Shown here: piece by piece, positions 3,301 through 56,466 of the stretch | Numbering within the stretch: the stretch's first letter is position 1 | Layout of the letters: the number at the start of each line of letters is the position of its first letter | Virus record (IMG/VR): IMGVR_UViG_3300020465_001196 | From: a virus | Lineage: Duplodnaviria > Caudoviricetes | Length of the DNA: 64,000 nt | Strand: one strand, 5' to 3' | Translations under genes and position numbers: made by a program | The notes under the pieces: model-generated | What the model saw: only the letters and a program-made list of their open reading frames with translations | Databases searched by the model: none | Told to the model about the DNA's origin: nothing

Positions 3301-6121
3301 CATATGCATTTGTGGCTGTACTTCCTGCTTTGTAATTTCCAGCTCTTGCTCTAACACCAATAATATGTGATGTATTAATAGTTCCAGTGGAATCATCTCT
3401 TACTTCTGCTTGGAAGTGATGACCAACTACACCATTTGCAGTTGTATTTCCACTTGAAGTAAGATTTGTATAACTGTAATCTCCATAAAGTTTTGTAATA
3501 TCATTTACATCATTAGTACCATGTGTAAAGCCACCTAACTTTAATGTTGAATCTGTATGCCAACCTTGTTTCTTATTTGCCGCATCTGTATTAGCTGATA
3601 ATGTTTGTGTATTGTTCCAACCTGTGCTGTAATGTCTTTTTGAATTATCTGACGTTCTAGTAAAGTATGCCGCTAATCCATTAATTCTTGAAGCAAGTGT
3701 TCCTGTAAATCCTGTTGCACTAATACCTTCACCAAGTTGTACATTATTACCACTTGATTTAATTGTGCTTGTTTGTACATCTAAATTACCACCAAGTTGT
3801 GGTGTTGTATCTTGTACTAAACTTGTAAATGTTTCTGATGACAAGTAACCAGCACTTGCGTGGTTACCCCAACCATATGCTGTAATAAATTGTCCTAGGT
3901 TTGTATCTGTTAATACATTCGTACCCATATCAATTGTATTACCATTTGCATCTAGTGTTCCACCTAATTGTGGAGTAGTATCATTAACTACATCTGTAAT
4001 ACCACCTGTACCATTTGCTACCCAAACATAATCTGAACCGTTCCAAGAAAGAACATAACCCGCTGTTGGATTACTTTGATTTAAGTGTGAATCAACTCTT
4101 GCTGTTGTAAAGTATAAATTACTTGAACCTTCTGACATTTCGTCAGTATTGTCTACTGTTAAAATTCGTGCATCAACATAAGCCTTAACTGATTGCTGTG
4201 ATGGAAGTCTAGTAGCACTATTAGTTGCCATATTATCTTCATCAATTAATGCCGCTGTAATACGTGCATCAGCTCTTGCATTTGTAAAGTAAAGATTACT
4301 TGAACCTTCTCCTAAAGCATCTGTATCTGCTGGACCACCTGAGTCATCTGCTACTACCCAAGAAGTACCATTGTATTTTAAAATTTTTCCATTTGCCGCT
4401 CCAGCCGTATTAACATCTGTTAAATTATTCAATGCAACTGAAGTTAAGTAACCTGCACCACTATGGTCTCCCCAACCATATGCTGTGTTCCAGTTTGCTG
4501 AACCTAATGCTGAAACTCTTGTGTTTACTCTAGCATCTGTATAATATAAATTAGAACCTTCTGCTAAATTTGTTGTTGATTTAGTTGCTAATCTATTATC
4601 AAAATCTGTATTAGTATAACCTGCATTAGTAACCCAAGCATAATCTGATCCATTCCAACTTAATACGTAACCTGCTGTTGGATTTGATTGATTTAAATGT
4701 GTGTCTACACTTGCATTAGTATAAGCCGCTGGTAAATTTGTAAGGTTCGAACCATCTACTGCTGGTAGTTTTGCTGAACCATCTAGTTGTACAATTTTGT
4801 TTGCACTTGTACCAACGTCAACGTTTAATGTTGCATCACCTGCCGTTGCACCACCTGTTAAACCTGTACCTGCAACAACTGATGTAATATCACCTGAACC
4901 TGTATTTGATGGAGCCCATCTACTATTACCGTTGTCCCAAGCAAGTACTTGTCCGTTTGTTGGAGCCGCCGTATGTACATTTGATAATGCACTTAATACT
5001 GCGTTTGAAATTCTTGCGTCTGCTCTTGCATTTGTATAATATAAATTTGTACCTTCTGATACATCTGAAGTTGACTTACCTGATAGTCTTGTATCAAATG
5101 TACTATTGAAATCTGCTGTTGCTAATTTTGTTGCAATACTATTTGTTACTGTTGTTGAAAAGTTTGCATCATCACCTAGTGCCGCCGCAAGTTCATTTAA
5201 TGTGTTTAATGTACCTGGTGCCGCATCAACCAATGCATCAACTTTTAATTGTGCTCTTGCATCTGCTCTTGCATCTGTATAGTATAAATTTGTTCCTTCA
5301 GCAACGTCTGTTGTATTTAAAGTATCAAACTCTATTGCGTTTGCACCTGAATTAACTTTTAAATATTTTCCTGCGTCACCTGTAAAGTTTGCTGGAGTAT
5401 CTGATAAACCTACGAAAGTAGATGCACCACCTCCGCCGCCACCACTAATATCTGAACCAACTTCCCATTGTGAAGTTGATGAATTATATTTTAAAACTGA
5501 ATTGTTTACTGCACCTGATGTATCTACATCTCCTATATTATTAAGTGCCGCAATTGATCCTGCCGTAGTTGCAAGACCATAAAATCTGTTTGCATAAATT
5601 GCCGCCCATCTATTTGAGTTATTACCTATTGACCATGTATTGTCTGCTGATGGTAATACAGAAGCATTATTTTTTAATGCAAATCCATCTATTTCTGTTT
5701 TAGAGTAAACTTCTAAATTTGTTCTTGCTGTTGCTAAATTTGTTAAGCCTGATAAATTATTTGATTTTTGTAAAAAGTCTGATGATACTACACCACCTAA
5801 TTTTCCTGCATCAACATTTGCTGAAACTAATTGTAATGTTAAATCATTTGCATTTGATGTTAAACTAATACCACTTGCCGCATTTGCAATTAATGATTTA
5901 AGTTGTATATTATCGCCTGACTTACTTGTAAATAAACCAGATCCTGTACCTATATTTAATGCTGTTGTGTCGTTTGATGCTGTAATTGTTATTTCAGTAG
6001 CAGAGTTTGCCAAAGTGACATTTGTACCCGCTTTGAGAGTTTTAAACTGTAAATCATCACCAACTTTTGAACTAAAAATGATGTGTCCAGTACCTAAATT
6101 TGAACCTGTGTTATCAGCCAT
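341..6121 (-). CDS. Large tail fibre / virion fibre protein with modular internal repeats
   Basis: 1926 aa, rich in G/S/T/A/N/D; repeats EGxxNLY[YF]TxAR x13, DEDNM..SQQSVKAYVD x4, AYGWG[ND]H..AGYL x4, DTTPQLGG x3. Confidence 0.75.
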   Translation of the reverse strand: MADNTGSNLGTGHIIFSSKVGDDLQFKTLKAGTNVTLANSATEITITASNDTTALNIGTGSGLFTSKSGDNIQLKSLIANAASGISLTSNANDLTLQLVSANVDAGKLGGVVSSDFLQKSNNLSGLTNLATARTNLEVYSKTEIDGFALKNNASVLPSADNTWSIGNNSNRWAAIYANRFYGLATTAGSIAALNNIGDVDTSGAVNNSVLKYNSSTSQWEVGSDISGGGGGGASTFVGLSDTPANFTGDAGKYLKVNSGANAIEFDTLNTTDVAEGTNLYYTDARADARAQLKVDALVDAAPGTLNTLNELAAALGDDANFSTTVTNSIATKLATADFNSTFDTRLSGKSTSDVSEGTNLYYTNARADARISNAVLSALSNVHTAAPTNGQVLAWDNGNSRWAPSNTGSGDITSVVAGTGLTGGATAGDATLNVDVGTSANKIVQLDGSAKLPAVDGSNLTNLPAAYTNASVDTHLNQSNPTAGYVLSWNGSDYAWVTNAGYTNTDFDNRLATKSTTNLAEGSNLYYTDARVNTRVSALGSANWNTAYGWGDHSGAGYLTSVALNNLTDVNTAGAANGKILKYNGTSWVVADDSGGPADTDALGEGSSNLYFTNARADARITAALIDEDNMATNSATRLPSQQSVKAYVDARILTVDNTDEMSEGSSNLYFTTARVDSHLNQSNPTAGYVLSWNGSDYVWVANGTGGITDVVNDTTPQLGGTLDANGNTIDMGTNVLTDTNLGQFITAYGWGNHASAGYLSSETFTSLVQDTTPQLGGNLDVQTSTIKSSGNNVQLGEGISATGFTGTLASRINGLAAYFTRTSDNSKRHYSTGWNNTQTLSANTDAANKKQGWHTDSTLKLGGFTHGTNDVNDITKLYGDYSYTNLTSSGNTTANGVVGHHFQAEVRDDSTGTINTSHIIGVRARAGNYKAGSTATNAYGLYVDTAKDGSATITNRYSIYAPESSDTAYFAGPVKVGAWTLPIADGTNGQVLKTDGSGNVTWNSDTGHTNTDTLTEGSSNLYFTNARADARADVRIGAANINALANVHTAAPTDGQVLKWDNGNSRWAPANDTDTVYSSFNSDFDTRLAAKDTGDLSEGSNLYYTQARADARVDAGFSAKSTTNLSEGTNLYYTDARADARITNALIDEDNMASNSATKLPSQQSVKAYVDSQILTKDNTDEIAEGSTNLYFTNARADARITNAMVDEDNMASDSNTKVPTQQSVKAYVDSQVASENELSEMNDVTIASVQNNQFLRYNSTSSKWENVTAGTSTAAGSDTYVQFNDGGTIGGDSDFTYNKTTNKITVGSVTTTGASPAISSSGALGISTTASNSNITITPHGTGDVVIDGQKWPQADGSANQYLKTDGAGQLSWDSLTTDDVSEGANLYYTNARADARADIRFDVKLAAADTGDLSEGSNLYYTDARADARITNALIDEDNMASNSATKLPSQQSVKAYVDAQILTKDNTDEMTEGSSNLYFTNARAISAVQGTNIDMGSNNITTTGKVLFANMYATEGALPNATTYHGMFAHVHGTGAGYFAHGGNWIKLANNSQLANSSNWDTAYGWGNHASAGYLSSETFTSLVQDTTPQLGGTLDANSNTIDMGSNVITDAKVGQWDTAYGWGNHASAGYLTSVPAQSFASLTGKPTTIAGYGITNLNASIDAHLNQSGPTSGYVLSWNGSDYAWVAQSGGGASAINNLTDVTISGASNGQVLKYNGSAWVNAADSGGPADTDALSEGSSNLYFTNARADARIGAADLADLSNVHTAAATDGQVLTWDNSNTRWAPATPSGGSGSTVVERFKINYATNGQLSTITDKTSGISSVSIDSASGGDITINTTGYSYPPANIIYYGYQYASNKYNVTNMNKDVTLREVPGGGSSGSPTAFGSFASVKVKASENDTGAGRSFGTVTHAWVQLVMGG

Positions 6122-6174
6122 ATTGCAATATATTCCTTATAAACTATTATATGTATTTATTTCTGGAACGTATA

Positions 6175-6546
6175 TTAGTGGTTCAAAAGAATTGACGTAA
6201 CTGAACCTGCAGATCTACCAAATACTAAAGCTCTTACATATAGGTAGTTACCAGTAAACGTATATGCTGTAGTACCCGTTTGAGTAGTATATGGAACTGC
6301 ATTTAATCCACCTAATGATATTCTAAACCAATCATTCGCTCCAGGAGTCTTAGCTAACGTGCCTTCAATTGCAATTGACCCTGTAAAACCACTTAAAGTG
6401 ATACCTACAGTATGTAAACCGTCTGAAAATCCATGATAAGAATCAGCTGGAACATTGGCACTTGTTACACTTGCACCAGTAAATGGTAATGTAATGCTCG
6501 CTCCTGCGGTATCTTTTGACAACATTTGTACACTAGTTCTTGACAT
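6175..6546 (-). CDS. Small virion structural protein (beta-rich)
   Basis: 123-aa ORF in the structural block; TAAATA 5 nt upstream of the ATG. Confidence 0.5.
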   Translation of the reverse strand: MSRTSVQMLSKDTAGASITLPFTGASVTSANVPADSYHGFSDGLHTVGITLSGFTGSIAIEGTLAKTPGANDWFRISLGGLNAVPYTTQTGTTAYTFTGNYLYVRALVFGRSAGSVTSILLNH

Positions 6547-6554
6547 AAAAGTAT

Positions 6555-8432
6555 TTATCCTAAACTAATTCCTGCACCTATCGTTATTCCGCCTGAAATA
6601 GTAATATTAGTTACTGAATCATTCACTGTTAACGAATAACTTTTATCTTGATACTCAAATCCATTATCTACTCTAACAACAAAGGTATAAGTTTGCCCAC
6701 CTGTTGTAGGTCCAGGCGTACCACTTATAACACCTGTACTATTGTTTAATGTAACACTACTTGGTAAAGATCCAGATTGTATTGAAAATGTTGCTGTATG
6801 TAATTGCTCAGAAGCTGAATTTCTAACTGTTGCTGATAAATCATAACTTAAATTATTATTTTCATTTACTGTTGCAACTGCATACGTTCCACCTATACCA
6901 TTACCTGTTTGCCATGTAAAATTATAATCTTGGTAAGGTTGATATGCTCTATTTAAGTTTGTCATTCCTCCACCCCAATCAGTAATTGCACCATCAATAT
7001 CTCCATTACCTTCTAACCATGCTATTGCTGATTCTTGATTTGCTTTTGTTGTTACTCCTGCATACGTGGTTGCATCTCTATCAAAGAAACAAGCAACAAG
7101 ACCTGCTACTTGTGGTGATGCCATAGATGTACCATTTAACTTGTTAACATAATATCCTGTTGAACCAATTTGTACTGCTGAACCTGAATTTATATATGCA
7201 CTATGAATTCTTGAACCAGGAGCCCATATTCTTAATGGAGCACCATAATTTGAATACGATGCTTTGGCTAAATTATGATCATGTGCCTGTACAGCAATAT
7301 CATGTCTTGTTGATGTTCCTGATTCTATCCATGCATTACCAGGTGACTGTCCATTATTTGTTGCTTGAAAATAAATTGTATTACCAAAACTACCACCTGG
7401 TGGTGCCCCTGCTATACCTGAACGTGCTCCTGTACCATGTACATTTGGATCATGTGCTGATGCATCTTGCATATACATTTTAGTTCCAGCACCATAACCT
7501 ATATCATTATTAGAATCAAAGAAATACCAATAACCTGAATTCCAACCACCTTCAGTTGAATCATAAACTCTTTCGTTGTCATTACCTGCTGAACAAACTG
7601 TTACTATACCTGCATTATGCATATTTTTTACTAGAGTATCATAACTAGATGAACGTGTCATATGATATTGACTGCTAGGAATATTACTTGGATCCCATGA
7701 CGCAATTGAAATTGTATGACCAGGATGATTTGGTGGATAATAAGTTGATGTTGCCCAACTCATATTAACTATTGTTGGTTTGTTATTTGATTTTGCATTA
7801 TGCCATGAAGTTAAATATCCCATTGACGATGGACTGTAACCATGTGTCAACCCACCTAGGTTAGTTGTAAAAGAATGTATAGTTGCTTCTCTGGCCCAAC
7901 CTTGTGTTCTACCCGCCATTGTTCCTGCTACGTGAGTACCATGTCCATCTGGATCAGTATAAAAATTTGCACCTTGTGTTCCACCAAAATTAACTTGATT
8001 AATTCTTGATGCCGTATTGGCTTGGTTTCTAAATTCTGGATGACCTGTAACAATTCCGGTGTCCATAATAACTACATCAACATTTGCACCATTATTTTTA
8101 TATGTAAATGTTGTTGAAAGTGTTGTACTGTTTTGTGTCATAGATGCAAGTCCCCAATTATGATGTGATGTACTTACTGTTGAAGATGTATTAGGATCAA
8201 TTGACGTTGATGTATTTTTATCAAATTTTAATGTCTTTTCATAGTCTTCACTATTTGCTCCGGCCACTTTATCTGATGCTAACCATTTATCAAATTGTGC
8301 TCTGTTGGCCATTTCTACCCAGATAATTTCAGGTATAGAATCGTCTATGATAGTTACACCATCAGCTTCTAACTCAGTAATTAACTGTTCTTTTGTAATA
8401 ACTTCTATATTTGGTACTACGAGTGCTCTCAT
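6555..8432 (-). CDS. Subtilisin-like S8 serine protease with C-terminal Ig-like (He_PIG-type) domain
   Basis: Catalytic triad motifs DVVIMDTG, HGTHVAGT and GTSMASPQVAG; C-terminal GxLPSSVTLNNSTGVISGTP. Confidence 0.9.
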   Translation of the reverse strand: MRALVVPNIEVITKEQLITELEADGVTIIDDSIPEIIWVEMANRAQFDKWLASDKVAGANSEDYEKTLKFDKNTSTSIDPNTSSTVSTSHHNWGLASMTQNSTTLSTTFTYKNNGANVDVVIMDTGIVTGHPEFRNQANTASRINQVNFGGTQGANFYTDPDGHGTHVAGTMAGRTQGWAREATIHSFTTNLGGLTHGYSPSSMGYLTSWHNAKSNNKPTIVNMSWATSTYYPPNHPGHTISIASWDPSNIPSSQYHMTRSSSYDTLVKNMHNAGIVTVCSAGNDNERVYDSTEGGWNSGYWYFFDSNNDIGYGAGTKMYMQDASAHDPNVHGTGARSGIAGAPPGGSFGNTIYFQATNNGQSPGNAWIESGTSTRHDIAVQAHDHNLAKASYSNYGAPLRIWAPGSRIHSAYINSGSAVQIGSTGYYVNKLNGTSMASPQVAGLVACFFDRDATTYAGVTTKANQESAIAWLEGNGDIDGAITDWGGGMTNLNRAYQPYQDYNFTWQTGNGIGGTYAVATVNENNNLSYDLSATVRNSASEQLHTATFSIQSGSLPSSVTLNNSTGVISGTPGPTTGGQTYTFVVRVDNGFEYQDKSYSLTVNDSVTNITISGGITIGAGISLG

Positions 8433-44871: not shown

Positions 44872-45138
44872 TTACCTCACTGTTCTCATTACCATTCTAT
44901 ATTGCTTATATGCTTCTTGGTAATTTTTATATGCTTCATTAACTGCTGGGTATTTTTTACGCATATATTGTTCATGTTTTGTTTTTCTTTCTACTTCAGA
45001 AACTTTACGCCTTAAACTTTGAGGATCTGTTTTTTGTGATGTTTTTACTATTGTCCTTCTAGTTATTAATGCTTCTTCTTGAATTAGTTCTTTTAGATCA
45101 TTAAATTCTTGGCGTGTTATTGTTTCTTGCTTACCCAT
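44872..45138 (-). CDS. Coiled-coil protein, paralogue of the previous gene
   Basis: KHEQYMRKKYPAVNEAYKNY. Confidence 0.6.
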   Translation of the reverse strand: MGKQETITRQEFNDLKELIQEEALITRRTIVKTSQKTDPQSLRRKVSEVERKTKHEQYMRKKYPAVNEAYKNYQEAYKQYRMVMRTVR

Positions 45139-46624
45139 TATTATCTATCCACTTGTTGAGTAGTTTAACTCCCCAACCTGTAGCACCACCTTTTGCTGTC
45201 ATAGATCCTTTATCGTTCCAAGTAACACCTGCTATATCAATATGTGTCCAAGGAGTGTCATTTACAAATCTCTGCAAAAATTGTGCCGCTGTTGTTGAAC
45301 TCGCTTCTCCACCTTTACCTACATTGTGCATATCAGCAATAGTTGAGTCAACATATTTGTCATATCTTTCTCCTATTGGATCGCATGGTAAACGCCATAC
45401 TTTTTCATCTACTTGATGCCCTGCATCAATTAATTGCTGTGCCATTAATGAATTATTTGTAAATATACCAGCAAGTTGATCACCAAGTGCAATTGAAATT
45501 GCTCCTGTTAGTGTTGCTAAATTAATCATTGTTTTTGGCTTGTATGTTTCTTGTGTGTACCATAAGCAATCTGCTAATACTACTCTACCTTCAGCATCTG
45601 TGTTGTCAATTTCAATAGTTTGCCCACTCATAGATGTAATAACATCGCCTGGCTTGTATGCATTACTAGATACCATATTTTCTACTAATCCAATAACACC
45701 AACTGCATTAATAGGCAAATTACGTTTTGCAATACTAATCATTGTACCAACAACTACTGCTGATCCACCCATGTCGTATTTCATATCTTTTAAACCTCTC
45801 GATGGCTTAATAGAATATCCGCCTGTATCGAAACACACACCTTTACCAACAAAGGCACTAGGTGCATCACCTTTTTTGCCATTCATCCATTCCATTACAA
45901 CCATTTGAGATTCTCTAGCACTACCTTGACCTACTGCCAATAATGCACCAGCACCCATTTTTTCAAGTTCTTTTTCACCATATACTTTAACTTTAAGTCC
46001 TAAGGCTTCTAATCCTTTAACACGGTCAGCATATGATTTTGGATATAAAACATTTGATGGTTCTGAAATTAAATCTTTTGCAAATGCAATTCCTTCTACC
46101 ATTGCGTTTTTATGTGTATATTCTTCTTGTAGTTTTGTTAAATCAACACCTTCTTGACAAACATCAACATCAAAATCAGTTTCTTCTTTGTCTTTTTTAG
46201 TAAAGTATTTGTCAAACTTATATTGTTTTAACTGCATACCAAAAGCAATATTACTTACAGATGTTTTAATTTCTTTGTCAGTAAACACTAATACACGACC
46301 TTGTGTACCACGTTCTTGCAATTTAGTGTAAACTGCTCCACCAATCTTTTCTAATTTTGCATCATCTAATTTTACTGGGTCACCTACACTAATAAACAAT
46401 GCATCATGACAAGGAAGATTATTAGATGTAATAAAAAAACTATCTAAAAACTTTCCTTTAAATTTATTTTGCCCAAGTGTTTCGTTTAGTAAACCATCAG
46501 TACCTTGATCTAATATACTTGCTGATTGTGATAGCTGAATGTCATCACCTACTTTATAAAGTAAATGTACTTCACAATTACTTTCACCGCTTGATTCTAA
46601 ATCATTTATAAAATTTATTTTCAT
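45131..46624 (-). CDS. pepA: Leucyl aminopeptidase (M17, PepA)
   Basis: VGKGVCFDTGG, MKYDMGG, NTDAEGRVVLAD, ATLTGA, HIDIAG. Confidence 0.96.
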   Translation of the reverse strand: MKINFINDLESSGESNCEVHLLYKVGDDIQLSQSASILDQGTDGLLNETLGQNKFKGKFLDSFFITSNNLPCHDALFISVGDPVKLDDAKLEKIGGAVYTKLQERGTQGRVLVFTDKEIKTSVSNIAFGMQLKQYKFDKYFTKKDKEETDFDVDVCQEGVDLTKLQEEYTHKNAMVEGIAFAKDLISEPSNVLYPKSYADRVKGLEALGLKVKVYGEKELEKMGAGALLAVGQGSARESQMVVMEWMNGKKGDAPSAFVGKGVCFDTGGYSIKPSRGLKDMKYDMGGSAVVVGTMISIAKRNLPINAVGVIGLVENMVSSNAYKPGDVITSMSGQTIEIDNTDAEGRVVLADCLWYTQETYKPKTMINLATLTGAISIALGDQLAGIFTNNSLMAQQLIDAGHQVDEKVWRLPCDPIGERYDKYVDSTIADMHNVGKGGEASSTTAAQFLQRFVNDTPWTHIDIAGVTWNDKGSMTAKGGATGWGVKLLNKWIDNNG

Positions 46625-47869: not shown

Positions 47870-48195
47870 TAATCTCTTGTTTGTAAATGTTCTGGTATTG
47901 TATCAACACAAAAGAATGTTAAATTTTCTTCTTCAACTGCTCTCATTACTTTACAATCTTTACCAGTTACTTTTGATATAATATGATCAGTTGTTGTTTT
48001 TTCACCATTTAATGTTTGTGCAATATCTACACCAGTTTTTGCAATAGTAATTGTTTTATAAGTTTGATAAGAACCAGATGCTGTTGCTGTTGCACTACTT
48101 CCAACTAAAAAACTAGGGGCCGCACATCCTTGTAATAATACAAGTACACTTATCCATAACAACATTAAAAATAATATTGGTCTGTCATTCATCAT
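47869..48195 (-). CDS. Lipoprotein
   Basis: Signal peptide with lipobox LQGC. Confidence 0.65.
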   Translation of the reverse strand: MMNDRPILFLMLLWISVLVLLQGCAAPSFLVGSSATATASGSYQTYKTITIAKTGVDIAQTLNGEKTTTDHIISKVTGKDCKVMRAVEEENLTFFCVDTIPEHLQTRD

Positions 48196-48638
48196 ACTTT
48201 TCTACCTGCTGTCTTTAAATCTTCTCTTGCTACTACCATATAAGGTCCTTTATTATATGCTGGTGCAATTGAATATTGTCTACTTACTTCTAATCTTTCT
48301 TTTTCTTCACGCCAATTTCTTGTAGCACCACCACCAATTTTATTACTCAACTTAGGTTCTTGTTTGGCAGGAGTGGAAGGATTCGAACCCTCACTTACGG
48401 TTTTGGAGACCGACGTGCTAACCGTTGACACTACACTCCTAGTTGTAGTAACGGGTGGCTTGTATTTGCCACGTCTATAATCAATATAATCTTGCTCTGT
48501 CATTTGTGGTAACCCTTTGCTTTTTAAAAATTTATTTTGTTCTTTGAACCCTTGCATATAATATTCAGTTTTCTTAGGTTTAGTCTTTCGCTTCTTTGTA
48601 TTCAGAGTGGTTAAGCCACGTTCTAAGTGCATTGTCAT
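48192..48638 (-). CDS. Conserved phage protein (C-terminal IAPAYNKGPY motif) carrying an in-frame tRNA
   Basis: Phage-type N-terminus MHL..GLTT.NTKKRK and C-terminus APAYNKG; own promoter; ATGA-coupled to the downstream gene. Confidence 0.7.
   Translation of the reverse strand: MTMHLERGLTTLNTKKRKTKPKKTEYYMQGFKEQNKFLKSKGLPQMTEQDYIDYRRGKYKPPVTTTRSVVSTVSTSVSKTVSEGSNPSTPAKQEPKLSNKIGGGATRNWREEKERLEVSRQYSIAPAYNKGPYMVVAREDLKTAGRKV
48365..48440 (-). tRNA. trnW: tRNA-Trp(CCA), nested inside the CDS on the same strand
   Basis: AGGAGTG/CACTCCT acceptor stem, GTGT/GCAC D-stem, loop CT-CCA-AA, GAGGG-TTCGAAT-CCTTC T-arm, G73, encoded CCA; 76 nt. Confidence 0.88.
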
Positions 48639-48644
48639 AGTATT

Positions 48645-48672
48645 AATATAACACATATTAGTCTTTTGTCAA
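48645..48672 (-). promoter_or_regulatory. Sigma70-type promoter, leaderless mRNA
   Basis: TTGACA-N16-TATATT with TGn extension; ATG at +7. Confidence 0.7.
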
Positions 48673-50723: not shown

Positions 50724-51932
50724 TTATTTGCTAAACCTGTCTTTAATTTCTTTTAAACAAGTTAGAAAATAATCAACTTCTTTTTTTGTACTATATACAC
50801 CTGTTGATATTCTACAACTACCACTCCATCCTATTTGTCTGTGTAGCATTTGTGTACAATGATGTCCTGGGCGAGTTGCAATCCCATAAGCATCTAAAAA
50901 CATTGCCATATCTTGATGATGTACTCCATCAAGGTTAAATGAAATAACAGCACTACGTTCTTTTGTGCCAATAAATTTTACTCCATCTATTTGCGACATT
51001 TTTTCATAAGCATAATCTATTACTTCTTCTTCATGCTTAATCATTTCTTCAAATCCTGTGTCAACATAAAAGTTTAATGCTTCATGTAGCCCAACAATTT
51101 CTGTTACTGCTAATGTGCCAGCTTCCCATTTCTTAGAACCTTCTGCAAAGTCAACATTATCATGATCTACTGTTGCAACTGTTCCACCACCGCCTAGTGC
51201 AGGATCTAAATTATCAATCCATTTACGTTTTGCATACATAACACCAATACCACTTGGACCATACATCTTATGTCCACTCATTGCATAAAAGTCACAATCT
51301 AAATTTTGCATATCAACTTTAATGTGTGGTGCACCTTGTGTACCATCTACTGCAACTACAATGTTATGTTTTTTAGCAATTTCACAAACACGTTTAATGT
51401 CTATTACTTGCCCTGATGTATTAGATACATGAGTAATTGCAATAATTTTCGTACGATCAGTAATTAATGATTCTATTTCTTCAATATCGATTTGATGTTG
51501 CTCATTAACTTTTAAAAACTTTATAACTGCACCATTAAACTTACGTTGTAAATGCCATGGTATATAATTCGAATGATGTTCTATTTCTGTTGTAATAATT
51601 TCATAGCCTGGTTGCATTGTTCTACCAAATGCTGTTGCAACCATATTAATTGCTTCTGTGGCTGATTTTGTAAACACTATTTCATCTGGTTCATTTGCAT
51701 TAATAAAATCTGCAACTGCTTGTCTACTTTTTTCTACCAATGCCGTTGCATGATTTGATAATTCGTGTATGCTTCTTCCAATACTTGAATATTCTTCTGT
51801 CATAAACTTATTCATTCTATCAATTACACATTGTGGTTTTTGTGAAGAATTAGCACTATCAAAGTATACCAATGGCTTACCGCTGGGTAGCATTTTGTTT
51901 AGTATCGGAAAATGTTTTCTTATATGTTCCAT
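50724..51932 (-). CDS. sufS: SufS/CsdA-type cysteine desulfurase
   Basis: YFDSANSSQKP, EIEHHSN..PW, SGHKMYGPSGIG, RPGHHCTQ. Confidence 0.95.
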   Translation of the reverse strand: MEHIRKHFPILNKMLPSGKPLVYFDSANSSQKPQCVIDRMNKFMTEEYSSIGRSIHELSNHATALVEKSRQAVADFINANEPDEIVFTKSATEAINMVATAFGRTMQPGYEIITTEIEHHSNYIPWHLQRKFNGAVIKFLKVNEQHQIDIEEIESLITDRTKIIAITHVSNTSGQVIDIKRVCEIAKKHNIVVAVDGTQGAPHIKVDMQNLDCDFYAMSGHKMYGPSGIGVMYAKRKWIDNLDPALGGGGTVATVDHDNVDFAEGSKKWEAGTLAVTEIVGLHEALNFYVDTGFEEMIKHEEEVIDYAYEKMSQIDGVKFIGTKERSAVISFNLDGVHHQDMAMFLDAYGIATRPGHHCTQMLHRQIGWSGSCRISTGVYSTKKEVDYFLTCLKEIKDRFSK

Positions 51933-51980: not shown

Positions 51981-52056
51981 TGGTGGAGGATAGCGGGATC
52001 GAACCGCTGACCTCCTGAATGCAAATCAGGCGCTCTCCCAGCTGAGCTAATCCCCC
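51981..52056 (-). tRNA. trnA: tRNA-Ala(TGC)
   Basis: G3:U70 identity pair, CCTGA-TTTGCAT-TCAGG anticodon arm, TTCGATC, ends ACCA; 76 nt. Confidence 0.96.
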
Positions 52057-52060
52057 ACAG

Positions 52061-52216
52061 TTAGCATAACTCATAAGCAGGATTCTGTTCATTGCTATCA
52101 TTTACCTTTGCGTCCTACCCTGTGTCCCGGCAGTTGTTGACACTCTACTTGGACTTGCACATATCTGCCTGTGTCCTGACTTTCCTCTGTTTCCAGCGAT
52201 AGCCCGGTTATGCTAA
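52061..52216 (-). ncRNA. rnpB: Miniature RNase P RNA (156 nt)
   Basis: GAGGAAAGUCAGGA and AACAGAAUCCUGCUUA form P4; P1 UUAGCAUAAC/GUUAUGCUAA; P2 GCUAUC/GAUAGC; P3 CUG-GAAA-CAG; GGCAG/CUGCC helix; GGUAGG in the P15 region. Confidence 0.9.
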
Positions 52217-52223
52217 TGTATTT

Positions 52224-52252
52224 ACTATAATACATTTCTATAATTTTGTCAA
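52224..52252 (-). promoter_or_regulatory. Sigma70-type promoter of the RNase P RNA-tRNA-Ala unit
   Basis: TTGACA-N17-TATAGT; predicted +1 at A52217, adjacent to P1; overlapping TAAATA at 52219-52224. Confidence 0.85.
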
Positions 52253-52255
52253 TTG

Positions 52256-52471
52256 TTATTTGCTGTGTGGCGGAAGTTTCTTTTCAACCCACCAAATGTG
52301 TTTACGTGTAATTGGATCATATTTTCTAACTCTCAATTTATCGTTTTTCTTTTCGCCTTTGGTTGGTTTTTTAGCATAATAATAATATGCATGATCTTTC
52401 ATTTTAGAATCTTCTGGTACTAATCTAACTTTTAAATATGGTTTTTTTGTTTTAGTTTTATTTTTTGCCAT
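52256..52471 (-). CDS. rpmG: Ribosomal protein bL33 (Cys-free type)
   Basis: KVRLVP..YYY.KK....KLR.RKYDPI.RKH..W.EKK. Confidence 0.85.
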   Translation of the reverse strand: MAKNKTKTKKPYLKVRLVPEDSKMKDHAYYYYAKKPTKGEKKNDKLRVRKYDPITRKHIWWVEKKLPPHSK

Positions 52472-53625: not shown

Positions 53626-53951
53626 TATAAATCTTGTGCTACTGTTATTGTCATTCCATCCATTTCTGGATTAACTTGAATTTGACATCCAAGTCTTGAT
53701 TCGTCAGTAACTCCTTCAGCCATCTCTATCATATCTTTTTCATCTTCAGTAAAATCGTTTACTGCCCATTTAGAAGTTGATTCAATATATACATGGCAAG
53801 TGGCACAGGCACAACAACCTCCACAATCACCAAAATGATCCATTTGAATTTCTTTTATTATAACGTCTTTTAAAGTTTTACCAATTTCTGCATCTATAGT
53901 ATGCTTTTGACCTTTTCTGTCAATTAAATGAAGTGTTACTGTATCACTCAT
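53625..53951 (-). CDS. fdx: 2Fe-2S ferredoxin (ISC/adrenodoxin type)
   Basis: CGGCCACATCHVY; ESRLGCQI. Confidence 0.93.
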   Translation of the reverse strand: MSDTVTLHLIDRKGQKHTIDAEIGKTLKDVIIKEIQMDHFGDCGGCCACATCHVYIESTSKWAVNDFTEDEKDMIEMAEGVTDESRLGCQIQVNPEMDGMTITVAQDL

Positions 53952-54982
53952 AGATTAACTACTTTTTTCTTTTGCATCATTCTATTGTAAAAATTTATAC
54001 TAGCAAGATTTTTTGCTTTAGACTCACACATGATATCAAAATCATCTGTAAATGTCCAAGCCCATTCGTTAACAGCATCATTCCAATAGTAATCAGAATG
54101 TGCTCTCAGTTTTGCTTTCTTGTAACCAGACTCTAATAGTGTTTTGTAATTTGGCTTAATATTTGTTGCATGACCTGGTATCACATCTTCGCGAGATACA
54201 GAATAATGCATAGCAGGCCTAACGCCACGCCAACTATCAATAATACGTTTAATACGGTCGTCGCCTGGAGTAATATATTCTCCGGCACTATGAACCCAGT
54301 GATGGTGTATGTCGACAACTAATGCTACCTCCTTCTCAAGTTCTAATGAAGCATCTAAGCCCCACGAGTTTTCATCATTCTCAATTGTAATACAATTTCT
54401 TGCTTCAGTTGATAGCCTAGGCAACACATCAATAATACCTTGCGGGCCACGTTTACCTGATATATGTACATTACATTTAAAGTCTTGAAATGTTTTACCA
54501 TAACCCATCCAACGTGCAACATTAATATGATATTCAAATTCTTCTATACTTCTGTTTACTATATCATCACTTGCACTAGCCAATACTGTAAATTGACCAG
54601 GGTGCATACTAACTCTTACATCAAGTTTACGAGCAAGATTACCAACTGCTGGAAATGACTTTTCTAAATAGTCAACAACATCTGGCTTACGCCAAAAGTA
54701 TGACCAAGTTGGTTCTGTATATACAGGCAGTACATCACTACCAAGACGTACCATTCTTAAAGGTTGTGGCAAACTACCAACGTACTCAATTAGATTATAA
54801 AAAGCTGAAATATTATGTTGCATAATATCCCACAATCTTTGTTCAGCTACTTCTTTTGTTTGCCTATTCAACCAAGCAACTGTTGTAGACTTGGTATTGA
54901 ATGGTCGTTGTAATTCTTCTAGAAGTTTTTTCTTTTGCGATTGATCCGAATGCATATATTTACAAGCAAAACCTATTCTCAT
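53948..54982 (-). CDS. uvsE: UV-damage endonuclease UvsE/UVDE
   Basis: RIGFACKY, RLGSD, SMHPGQF, NVH, IENDE, DIHHHW, HSDY, DIMCESKAK. Confidence 0.93.
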   Translation of the reverse strand: MRIGFACKYMHSDQSQKKKLLEELQRPFNTKSTTVAWLNRQTKEVAEQRLWDIMQHNISAFYNLIEYVGSLPQPLRMVRLGSDVLPVYTEPTWSYFWRKPDVVDYLEKSFPAVGNLARKLDVRVSMHPGQFTVLASASDDIVNRSIEEFEYHINVARWMGYGKTFQDFKCNVHISGKRGPQGIIDVLPRLSTEARNCITIENDENSWGLDASLELEKEVALVVDIHHHWVHSAGEYITPGDDRIKRIIDSWRGVRPAMHYSVSREDVIPGHATNIKPNYKTLLESGYKKAKLRAHSDYYWNDAVNEWAWTFTDDFDIMCESKAKNLASINFYNRMMQKKKVVNL

Positions 54983-55539: not shown

Positions 55540-56466
55540 TTAGAATGTAAATTTAAAGCCTGTAGAATAACTGTCTGTATCTAAAGTAGATCCAGTATTA
55601 TTTGCGTGTTGATATTCAACATACGTAGATAATTTTCCAGTTACATTGTACGATGCACCGCCAGTATAGTATGAAGAAGAATCTTCAATTTTACCATAAC
55701 CTGCTGATACTGTTAATTTATCAGAGGCTGAATATGAAGCTACTACTTCATTGCCAGTAACATCTGTTGCGGCATCCTTTAACGTGTAAGTATAACCTAC
55801 TGTCATTGGAAGACCAATTGATGAAGCATCTGTTGTAAACCCTACACCATAATAGTTAATGTCATTAACTTTATCGTTAGATATACCACCTGATACCTTT
55901 ACACCTTCGACTTGATATGTTATTGTACCTTCTTGTACATCAACACCATCTTCTCCAGTTGATCCATCAATTTTAGCTAAACCATCAATTGTAATTGGGC
56001 CTAAATTATTTGAATACGCAATTGTATTTGTATCTCTTACAAATAAATTTTGATCTGCGTTCGAACCATAGACTTCAAATACATCTGTATGACCACTTAC
56101 ATTAGATGTAAATGGAGATGCTTGACGGCCTGCTGATAACGATCCAACCATACCAAAGTCTAAACCTACGTAGGCTAGACGAGAGTCTAGTGGATTATTA
56201 TTTGAGTCGTCAGTATCAACACCAAGTTCTAGTTTAGCAAAGCCAGTAATGCCTTCACCAATGCCTTCACTTGCATCAATACCAATCAACGATGAGTTGT
56301 TCTCAGCTTTCATATATGATTTACCAGAGCTATTTTCATCGTTACTTAATTTGTAATTAAACGTTCCGTAAATTTTTGTTTCTACGGCTTCTGCTTCACT
56401 ACAAGCTGTTAACGAAAATATCGCTACTAGCGAACCTATGATTGCTGTGCTTAAAAATTTTCTCAT
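55540..56466 (-). CDS. Gram-negative general porin
   Basis: Signal peptide; IYGTFNY, S.IG....E, FAKLE.G, SRLAYVGL..G.L..GRQ; terminal GFKFTF. Confidence 0.88.
   Translation of the reverse strand: MRKFLSTAIIGSLVAIFSLTACSEAEAVETKIYGTFNYKLSNDENSSGKSYMKAENNSSLIGIDASEGIGEGITGFAKLELGVDTDDSNNNPLDSRLAYVGLDFGMVGSLSAGRQASPFTSNVSGHTDVFEVYGSNADQNLFVRDTNTIAYSNNLGPITIDGLAKIDGSTGEDGVDVQEGTITYQVEGVKVSGGISNDKVNDINYYGVGFTTDASSIGLPMTVGYTYTLKDAATDVTGNEVVASYSASDKLTVSAGYGKIEDSSSYYTGGASYNVTGKLSTYVEYQHANNTGSTLDTDSYSTGFKFTF

Follow-up and report, generated by a model that had tools for sequence, protein, structure and literature searches.

Can an RNase P RNA, one of the two universal ribozymes, be maintained by a virus as a catalytic domain without its specificity domain? 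This question is raised by a short locus in the window, by which we mean the whole 64,000-nucleotide stretch of viral DNA that was analyzed (IMG/VR record IMGVR_UViG_3300020465_001196). A first-pass annotation had proposed a miniature RNase P RNA (P RNA), encoded by the phage, in which the catalytic domain (C-domain) is kept and most of the specificity domain (S-domain) is lost. The sequence that it quoted was located at positions 52061 to 52217 of the minus strand, as it had stated, and the RNA itself, bounded by the two strands of P1, is 156 nt long and occupies positions 52061 to 52216. A permissive Rfam cmscan, run without the gathering filter on 451 bases around the P RNA, matched RF00010 (RNaseP_bact_a) over the full model (positions 1 to 367 of 367) at 52058 to 52215 on the minus strand, with an E value of 1.1e-21, though its score of 71 bits lies under the curated cut-off of 100 bits for membership. 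The best member of the Rfam clan was RF00010, not RF02357. At the gathering score (100 bits), the P RNA is not reported and the whole window yields only four tRNAs. Annotation pipelines overlook the phage mini-P RNA because its score falls under the Rfam cut-off. The end-to-end match, together with the phage context and a covarying family of 42 members, bears out the proposal; judged by these comparisons, the segment from 52061 to 52216 is a real, selected gene for an RNase P RNA that descends from bacterial type A and has a C-domain only.

The RF00010 alignment contains two deletions, both of them clean. The S-domain block (P7 to P14, 158 model positions) is reduced to 8 nt in the phage RNA, 5 of which form P6, and the P18 block shrinks from 24 model positions to 0 nt, in line with the loss of P18 noted in the first-pass annotation. 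The specificity domain with its conserved regions CR-II and CR-III is thus absent, and so is P18. All other parts are aligned with high posterior probability: P1/P2, P3, the GAGGAAAGUC strand, P5, GCAAG (J5/15), and P15, as well as the GGGUAGG internal loop, P16, the A-rich J18/2 stretch, and ACAGAA.CC.GCUUA. The elements expected beforehand, namely a 10-bp P1, a 6-bp P2, a minimal GNRA-capped P3, and both P4 strands with the bulged U, are all present in the alignment (Table 1). P4 is built from CR-I and CR-V, AAG[U]CAGGA pairing with UCCUGCUU while the bulged U is kept, and its CAGGA/UCCUG version does differ from the consensus CCGGG/CCCGG by two compensated pairs. Also present in the phage RNA are the P15/L15 loop with its GGU and the P6 pseudoknot formed from the P16/17 loop. 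A single-sequence minimum free energy fold missed P4 and P6 and mispaired the core; the comparative structure was preferred.

Parts of the earlier reading had to be revised. The pairing GGCAG/CUGCC had been taken for a leftover S-domain helix; according to the alignment and to its complementarity in all 28 distinct family sequences, it is actually P6, which connects the P5 loop with the P16/17 loop. The S-domain had also been credited with about 31 remaining nucleotides. The 31 nt between GGCAG and CUGCC are the P5 3′ strand, J5/15, the 5′ strands of P15 and P16, and part of the loop; these are C-domain parts, and therefore the S-domain is gone, leaving 3 nt (AUA) in the window copy and 1 to 3 nt in the family. 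A GGU in the P15 region, also predicted, does exist as the counterpart of the CCA site, within AGGGUA on the 3′ side of L15; it is not the GGU in AAAGGUAAAU that had been singled out, which aligns with J18/2 (CR-IV). The remainder of that description holds. From its aligned position, the L15 GGU would correspond to the binding site of the tRNA 3′-CCA and may pair with it.

Table 1. Positions of the P RNA-tRNA unit in the window, listed in the direction of transcription, and of the second class of reduced phage P RNAs on their own contigs
Feature	Position	Strand	Description	Basis
Sigma-70-type promoter	52224-52252	−	TTGACA-N17-TATAGT; 11 of 12 consensus positions	
P1 5′ strand	52207-52216	−	Pairs with 52061-52070; 10 bp	
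P2 5′ strand	52198-52203	−	Pairs with 52094-52099; 6 bp	
P3	52187-52196	−	Minimal stem, 3 bp, GAAA tetraloop	
CR-I	52174-52186	−	J3/4 and P4 5′ strand, AGGAAAG[U]CAGGA, bulged U	RF00010 alignment
P5	52158-52173	−	CACA/UGUG, around P6 5′ strand and linker	Alignment, pair counts
P6 5′ strand	52165-52169	−	GGCAG	Complementarity check
Linker	52162-52164	−	AUA, 3 nt, in place of P7-P14	RF00010 alignment
J5/15, P15, L15, P16	52112-52157	−	J5/15 (CAA), P15 (GUCC/GGAC), L15 internal loop, P16 (GUGUC/GACAC)	Alignment, covariation
P6 3′ strand	52129-52133	−	CUGCC, within P16/17 loop (pseudoknot)	5 of 5 complementary
GGU of L15	52117-52119	−	In 3′ side, AGGGUA	Alignment to Rfam consensus ccGGGUAgg
J15/2	52100-52111	−	GCAAAGGUAAAU; aligned with J18/2 (CR-IV); P18 deleted	RF00010 alignment
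CR-V	52074-52093	−	J2/4 and P4 3′ strand (AAUGAACAGAAUCCUGCUUA)	RF00010 alignment
Linker to tRNA	52057-52060	−	CUGU, 4 nt, P1 to tRNA +1, U at −1	
tRNA-Ala(UGC)	51981-52056	−	G3:U70, CCA encoded; P RNA is its 5′ leader	
Second-class P RNA, L008	12076-12272			
Second-class P RNA, L010	10596-10802			
Second-class P RNA, L011	1942-2136			
Second-class P RNA, L012	482-672			
Second-class P RNAs, L009, L013, L014				

Is the window copy a singleton? A scan for two P4-strand motifs spaced 75 to 105 nt apart gave matches in 7 viral, 44 metagenome, and 8 prokaryote contigs. A covariance model (R1), built from the window and the 7 viral copies with nested helices only, scores the window copy at 184.5 bits, and there are 42 full-length members (124 to 185 bits; 28 distinct sequences), 154 to 168 nt long, all from marine viral or metagenome contigs. 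Among the 185,579 prokaryote species that the pattern scan covered, no family member was found, none of the 8 prokaryote matches qualifying; the matches L059 to L065 are ordinary full-length rnpB genes with a chance-fitting spacing (L061 and L063) or chance matches. Likewise, when the family and two larger forms were compared by blastn with 50,697 GenBank phage records, no member was returned, the sole exception being a 27-nt CR-V match in phage DLP6. Viral contigs scanned for a shorter spacing (45 to 75 nt between the P4 strands) gave no match, and the P RNA is missing from the nearest fragment, G001.

The family supports the structure by covariation. RNAalifold, applied to a plain MAFFT alignment, independently gave P1, P2, P3, P5, P15, and P16. 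In a pair count over the 28 distinct sequences, which also took in P4 and P6 as pseudoknots, standard pairs filled 94.8% of cells, compared with 83.9% in shuffled alignments and 29 to 38% when partners were slid by 1 to 3 columns. Changes on both sides were seen in 22 of 44 pairs, and 0 of 500 shuffles reached any of five measures. The doubly changed pairs are distributed over P1 (8 of 9 counted), P2 (5 of 6, with 98% of cells paired), P3 (2 of 3), P5 (1 of 4), P15 (1 of 4), and P16 (3 of 5). Because R1 left P6 unconstrained and one subgroup was off by one column, P6 was checked directly: all five bases are complementary in 28 of 28 distinct sequences, in five Watson-Crick versions (GGCAG/CUGCC, GGUGG/CCACC, GGUAG/CUACC, GUUGA/UCAAC, and GCUGG/CCAGC). 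The linker from the P6 5′ strand to the P5 3′ strand reads AUA, AAA, AGA, CG, or G, at the place where bacteria have an S-domain of ~150 nt. Across the 42 copies, compensatory changes are found in P1, P2, P3, P5, P15, P16, and P6, and the covariation rules out a chance match.

While the helices vary, the core strands do not. P4 is unvarying within the family; in other reduced phage forms, its inner pairs occur in seven covarying versions. Invariant or nearly so are CR-I, which with its bulged U is identical in 28 of 28 distinct sequences, J5/15, the GGGUA of L15, the CR-IV-like stretch, and CR-V; within this list the GGGUA and the AACAGAAUCCUGCUUA of CR-V are strictly invariant and J15/2 is nearly so. 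P3 is the family's most size-variable helix, ranging from 3 to ~6 bp, with 5 to 6 bp in the subgroup fused to tRNA-Gln, in L021, and in L016. In L021 (1254 to 1416), an 8-nt insertion lengthens P3.

The P RNA is followed directly by a tRNA and preceded by a promoter. A promoter scan recovered the TTGACA-N17-TATAGT element that had been read in the first pass with its +1 at the base of P1; the predicted +1 is at ~52217, and transcription likely starts there, one base before P1. Downstream sequence sufficed for a check in 41 family members, and in 40 of them a tRNA on the same strand begins ~2 to 11 nt after the model match. Depending on the subgroup, the partner is tRNA-Ala(UGC), tRNA-Ser(UGA), tRNA-Asp(GUC), or tRNA-Gln(UUG), and all of them encode CCA. 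The locus L016 has the promoter and the P RNA and is tRNA-free for 850 nt. As the partner tRNA varies and L016 has none, the fusion is selected yet neither tRNA-specific nor obligatory. A TTGACN-N17-TANNNT promoter ends 1 to 10 nt upstream of the RNA in all but the Asp subgroup, where TTGTCC-N17-TATAAT has a weaker −35 element. Each of the four tRNAs of the window has an encoded CCA, and a U precedes three of them at −1. A tRNA-Trp(CCA) at 48365 to 48440 (minus strand) is wholly enclosed by a 154-amino-acid open reading frame at 48192 to 48656 on the same strand.

Such an arrangement might be a natural self-cleaving P RNA-tRNA conjugate that acts only in cis, freeing one tRNA from host RNase P and having no significant activity in trans. 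The near-universal direct fusion through a linker of ~2 to 11 nt, kept while the partner tRNA changes, would suit this role. We nevertheless consider it quite unlikely, as the RNA of L016 has its own promoter but stands without a tRNA for 850 nt, reduced relatives in other phages lie inside arrays of 11 to 34 tRNAs, and just one of ~15 phage tRNAs is fused. On geometric grounds, moreover, a 4-nt linker off the far end of the 10-bp P1 seems to fall short of the P4 active site.

As to expression, exact contigs of one metatranscriptome (X15) were found within 1.2 kb only at 52052 to 52178 and at 52149 to 52267, and none came from the flanking genes. These are assembled contigs with ends and strand not given and with DNA carry-over possible, and they lend weak support to an abundant small RNA. 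The contig from 52149 to 52267 extends upstream across the promoter, which suggests read-through or DNA.

The carrier is a marine jumbo phage of ~330 kb. DNA of this stretch was found in marine metagenomes from about a dozen studies, the window has a G+C content of 31 to 36%, and its large open reading frames lie almost all on one strand. It is syntenic, with 77 to 95% DNA identity, with the IMG/VR contig G002 (328,149 bp), which has direct terminal repeats and is estimated to be 100% complete. G002 contains a single RF00010-like match (73.6 bits) and no second one, and its 16 tRNA matches include one terminal-repeat duplicate, giving 15 tRNAs. A bL33 homologue (PF00471, E = 5.4e-8; 71 amino acids; 52256 to 52471, minus strand) has its stop codon just upstream of the P RNA promoter, and directly after the P RNA-tRNA unit lies a gene for a SufS-type cysteine desulfurase (PF00266, E = 6e-130; 50724 to 51932, minus strand). 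The close relative L039 also retains the bL33 gene. In the Asp subgroup, sufS comes right after the tRNA as well (L001, 10017 to 11231; L043, 12465 to 13679; 61% amino acid identity), and thus the P RNA-tRNA-sufS order is conserved. Other neighbors in the window encode a methyltransferase, UvdE (53948 to 54982), and an M17 leucyl aminopeptidase (45131 to 46624). A Gram-negative porin gene (PF13609, E = 1.6e-20) at 55540 to 56466 (minus strand) hints at a Gram-negative host.

The Gln subgroup has a G+C content of 39 to 40% and no detectable protein in common with the window, and thus the P RNA is present in at least two unrelated phage backgrounds. A Gln-subgroup contig, L006, encodes a full-length DnaK (Hsp70; 4811 to 6727, plus strand) that is 58 to 68% identical to bacterial and phage-record DnaK. 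The spread of the P RNA bears on whether it could be a functionless, decaying remnant of a captured host rnpB gene, as a score under the Rfam gathering cut-off might lead one to think. That notion is hardly credible: the 28 distinct sequences stem from at least two unrelated backgrounds, seven helices have changed in a compensatory manner, the core strands do not vary, the deletions have precise limits, and the promoter is conserved. The covariation contradicts a decaying pseudogene.

Which protein would such an RNA use? A search for RnpA with the Pfam profile PF00825 (E ≤ 0.01; controls positive in 10 of 14) gave no match in the complete G002 or in three partial relatives; the search covered these relatives, and a profile of this kind may miss a divergent phage-encoded partner. 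The absence of PF00825 from a complete 328-kb relative is consistent with a host RnpA being borrowed, which is what we infer. Regions CR-IV and CR-V are those that contact RnpA in bacterial holoenzymes. An unrecognized phage-encoded protein, or no protein at all, might take the place of host RnpA, given that G002 has no PF00825 match, that large phages have many small proteins of unrecognized function, and that the bL33 gene is directly upstream. This is very unlikely in our estimation, because CR-IV and CR-V are conserved and the loci compared contain no candidate protein common to the Ala/Asp, Ser, and Gln groups.

Taken together, this is probably an RNase P RNA that is reduced to the C-domain, acts in trans with host RnpA, and is born as the leader of a tRNA transcript; the comparisons show its homology, fold, conservation, gene arrangement, and phage context, and the start of transcription, the processing, the use of RnpA, and the catalysis are proposed on that footing. 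Host RNA polymerase would start at the base of P1, directed by the P RNA's own sigma-70 promoter, which is close to consensus, and the same transcript would continue into tRNA-Ala 4 nt downstream. Since the RNA is made as a tRNA leader, a single RNase P cut at tRNA +1 would finish both molecules, maturing the tRNA at its 5′ end and defining where the ribozyme ends on its 3′ side. This cut would be made first by the host enzyme and later possibly by released phage RNA. The released RNA, 156 to 160 nt in length, would fold as P1 to P6 plus P15 and P16, held together by the long-range pairings P4 and P6, and would bind host RnpA and cleave phage and host pre-tRNAs in trans.

In bacterial RNase P, the active site comprises P4, J3/4, J5/15, and J18/2, L15 pairs with the tRNA 3′-CCA, RnpA binds the CR-IV/CR-V face and the 5′ leader, and the S-domain gauges the distance to the T-loop. 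The phage enzyme would read its substrate by the acceptor stem and, via L15, the 3′-CCA, and the T-loop elbow would go unread because the S-domain is gone. Type A RNAs are also held by the interdomain tertiary contacts L18-P8, L8-P4, L9-P1, and L14-P8, all of which are absent in the phage RNA; with these contacts gone and P3 just 3 bp long, the RNA may need a helper to fold and work well. As to what the phage would gain, we can only conjecture: an early burst of tRNA transcription in a slow-growing marine host, freedom from host shut-off, or relaxed specificity.

Alternatively, the RNA, whose C-domain retains the protein-binding face, might serve as a sponge or decoy that titrates host RnpA, or forms a crippled holoenzyme with it, and so depresses host tRNA maturation during takeover without itself being of use as an enzyme. 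Loss of the S-domain and of the interdomain contacts should cut activity (PMC5839562), rnpA is absent from the complete relative G002, and the promoter is strong and of an early type. A decoy, however, needs no L15 GGU, no J5/15, and no bulged U in P4, and these are invariant while the helices drift with compensation; the invariance of catalytic and substrate-binding parts would indicate selection beyond the protein-binding parts. In addition, the ~15 phage tRNAs require the same enzyme that a decoy would impair, and the steady fusion to a CCA-bearing tRNA suits a processing role better. A decoy is therefore unlikely, and we retain the trans-acting ribozyme as the preferred reading.

It is tempting to go further and to regard promoter, ribozyme, and tRNA as a self-sufficient, self-amplifying cassette, in which fused transcripts cut themselves or their sisters without host RNase P RNA and the S-domain-less enzyme has a relaxed specificity. 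We hold this to be possible, if doubtful. If true, every cut would free a mature tRNA and a new ribozyme, and the relaxed specificity would allow all dispersed phage tRNAs and tRNA-punctuated mRNAs to be matured even with host RNase P limiting or shut down. The cassette would then be the first natural RNase P ribozyme built as the 5′ leader of its own substrate and the smallest natural RNase P of bacterial type.

Reduced P RNAs of other kinds are also carried by phages. L008 to L014 form a second class of ~190 to 205 nt with a bacterial type A core and a hairpin replacing the S-domain (Table 1). Five of these seven lie in or beside arrays of 11 to 34 tRNAs, and the L008 and L011 loci also carry a tmRNA gene. 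The Rfam cut-off is exceeded by L010, L012, and the metagenome form L029 (825 to 991, minus strand; ~170 nt, 108 bits), which keeps P18 and has neither the S-domain nor P15 to P17. Another metagenome contig, L055 (3720 to 3891, minus strand), encodes a form of ~170 nt in which a P7/P8-like piece is kept and P15 to P18 are absent. In the genome of Stenotrophomonas phage vB_SmaS-DLP_6 (DLP6), we found an unannotated 249-nt RF00010-like RNA (KU682439.2, 105774 to 106022, corresponding to L077, 1302 to 1550; 54.7 bits, E = 2.5e-15) located 3 nt upstream of tRNA-Arg(CCG). DLP6, a cultured phage, could serve as a laboratory system. On L066 (3931 to 4107, minus strand), a contig binned to an Elusimicrobia metagenome-assembled genome, a reduced RNase P-like RNA of 177 nt (72 bits) lies among six tRNAs; the contig may represent a prophage or a phage sequence binned in error. 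The larger phage forms have a hairpin of 30 to 90 nt for the S-domain, are tRNA-adjacent, and usually stand in big tRNA arrays without a promoter of their own, whereas the window family has a linker of 1 to 3 nt, its own sigma-70 promoter, and a single-tRNA fusion. At 154 to 168 nt, the family is the smallest found here that retains P15 to P17 and P6.

The minimum size of P RNA, the role of its S-domain, and its dependence on protein have so far been approached mainly through engineered deletions and one archaeal lineage. The phage RNAs amount to a natural deletion series, at the end of which a bacterial-type catalytic domain of ~155 nt is under selection in many marine phages, and they offer structural biology a compact natural RNase P core. 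A ribozyme gene thereby joins the translation-related functions of large phages, its tRNA-leader design would couple ribozyme release to substrate maturation, and a testable question is raised as to why a virus would need a tRNA-processing enzyme of its own. A literature search outside subscription-only papers, which took in reviews of RNase P and of jumbo phages, turned up no account of an RNase P RNA encoded by a phage; a paper on a survey tool lists the RNase P RNA types A, B, C, M, and T and leaves a viral form unmentioned.

Compared with type A RNAs such as E. coli M1 RNA (rnpB), the phage RNA has the same CR-I, CR-IV, and CR-V and the same topology of P1 to P6 and P15 to P16/17, and the two are alike in the bulged U of P4, the P6 pseudoknot, and the L15 GGU. 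It differs in its length (156 nt against ~350 to 400 nt), in the lack of P18 and of P7 to P14 with CR-II and CR-III, so that T-loop recognition would be lost, and in a P3 cut to 3 bp. Furthermore, it is phage-borne, with no rnpA partner found in the genome of the complete relative, forms the leader of a tRNA, and scores under the Rfam cut-off.

Among natural P RNAs, the type T RNAs of Thermoproteaceae are likewise drastically reduced in the S-domain and conserved in the C-domain, P15 to P17 and P6 included (as cited in PMC7191817 and PMC13462272). Type T keeps a hairpin remnant of the S-domain with a putative T-loop (PMC13462272, PMC7191817) and works with the archaeal proteins Pop5, Rpp30, Rpp29, and L7Ae (PMC13462272). 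The phage RNA, in contrast, has a linker of 1 to 3 nt and no hairpin remnant, is of bacterial-type sequence, and has a viral carrier. [quoted passage not shown] The phage RNA holds exactly the parts that were found sufficient there, P6 being kept and P18 dispensed with, and it is trimmed further than the nearly full C-domain of Eco CP RPR in P1, P3, and P15 to P17, while its P6 is a true 5-bp helix. What was made there as a construct thus occurs here as a natural gene.
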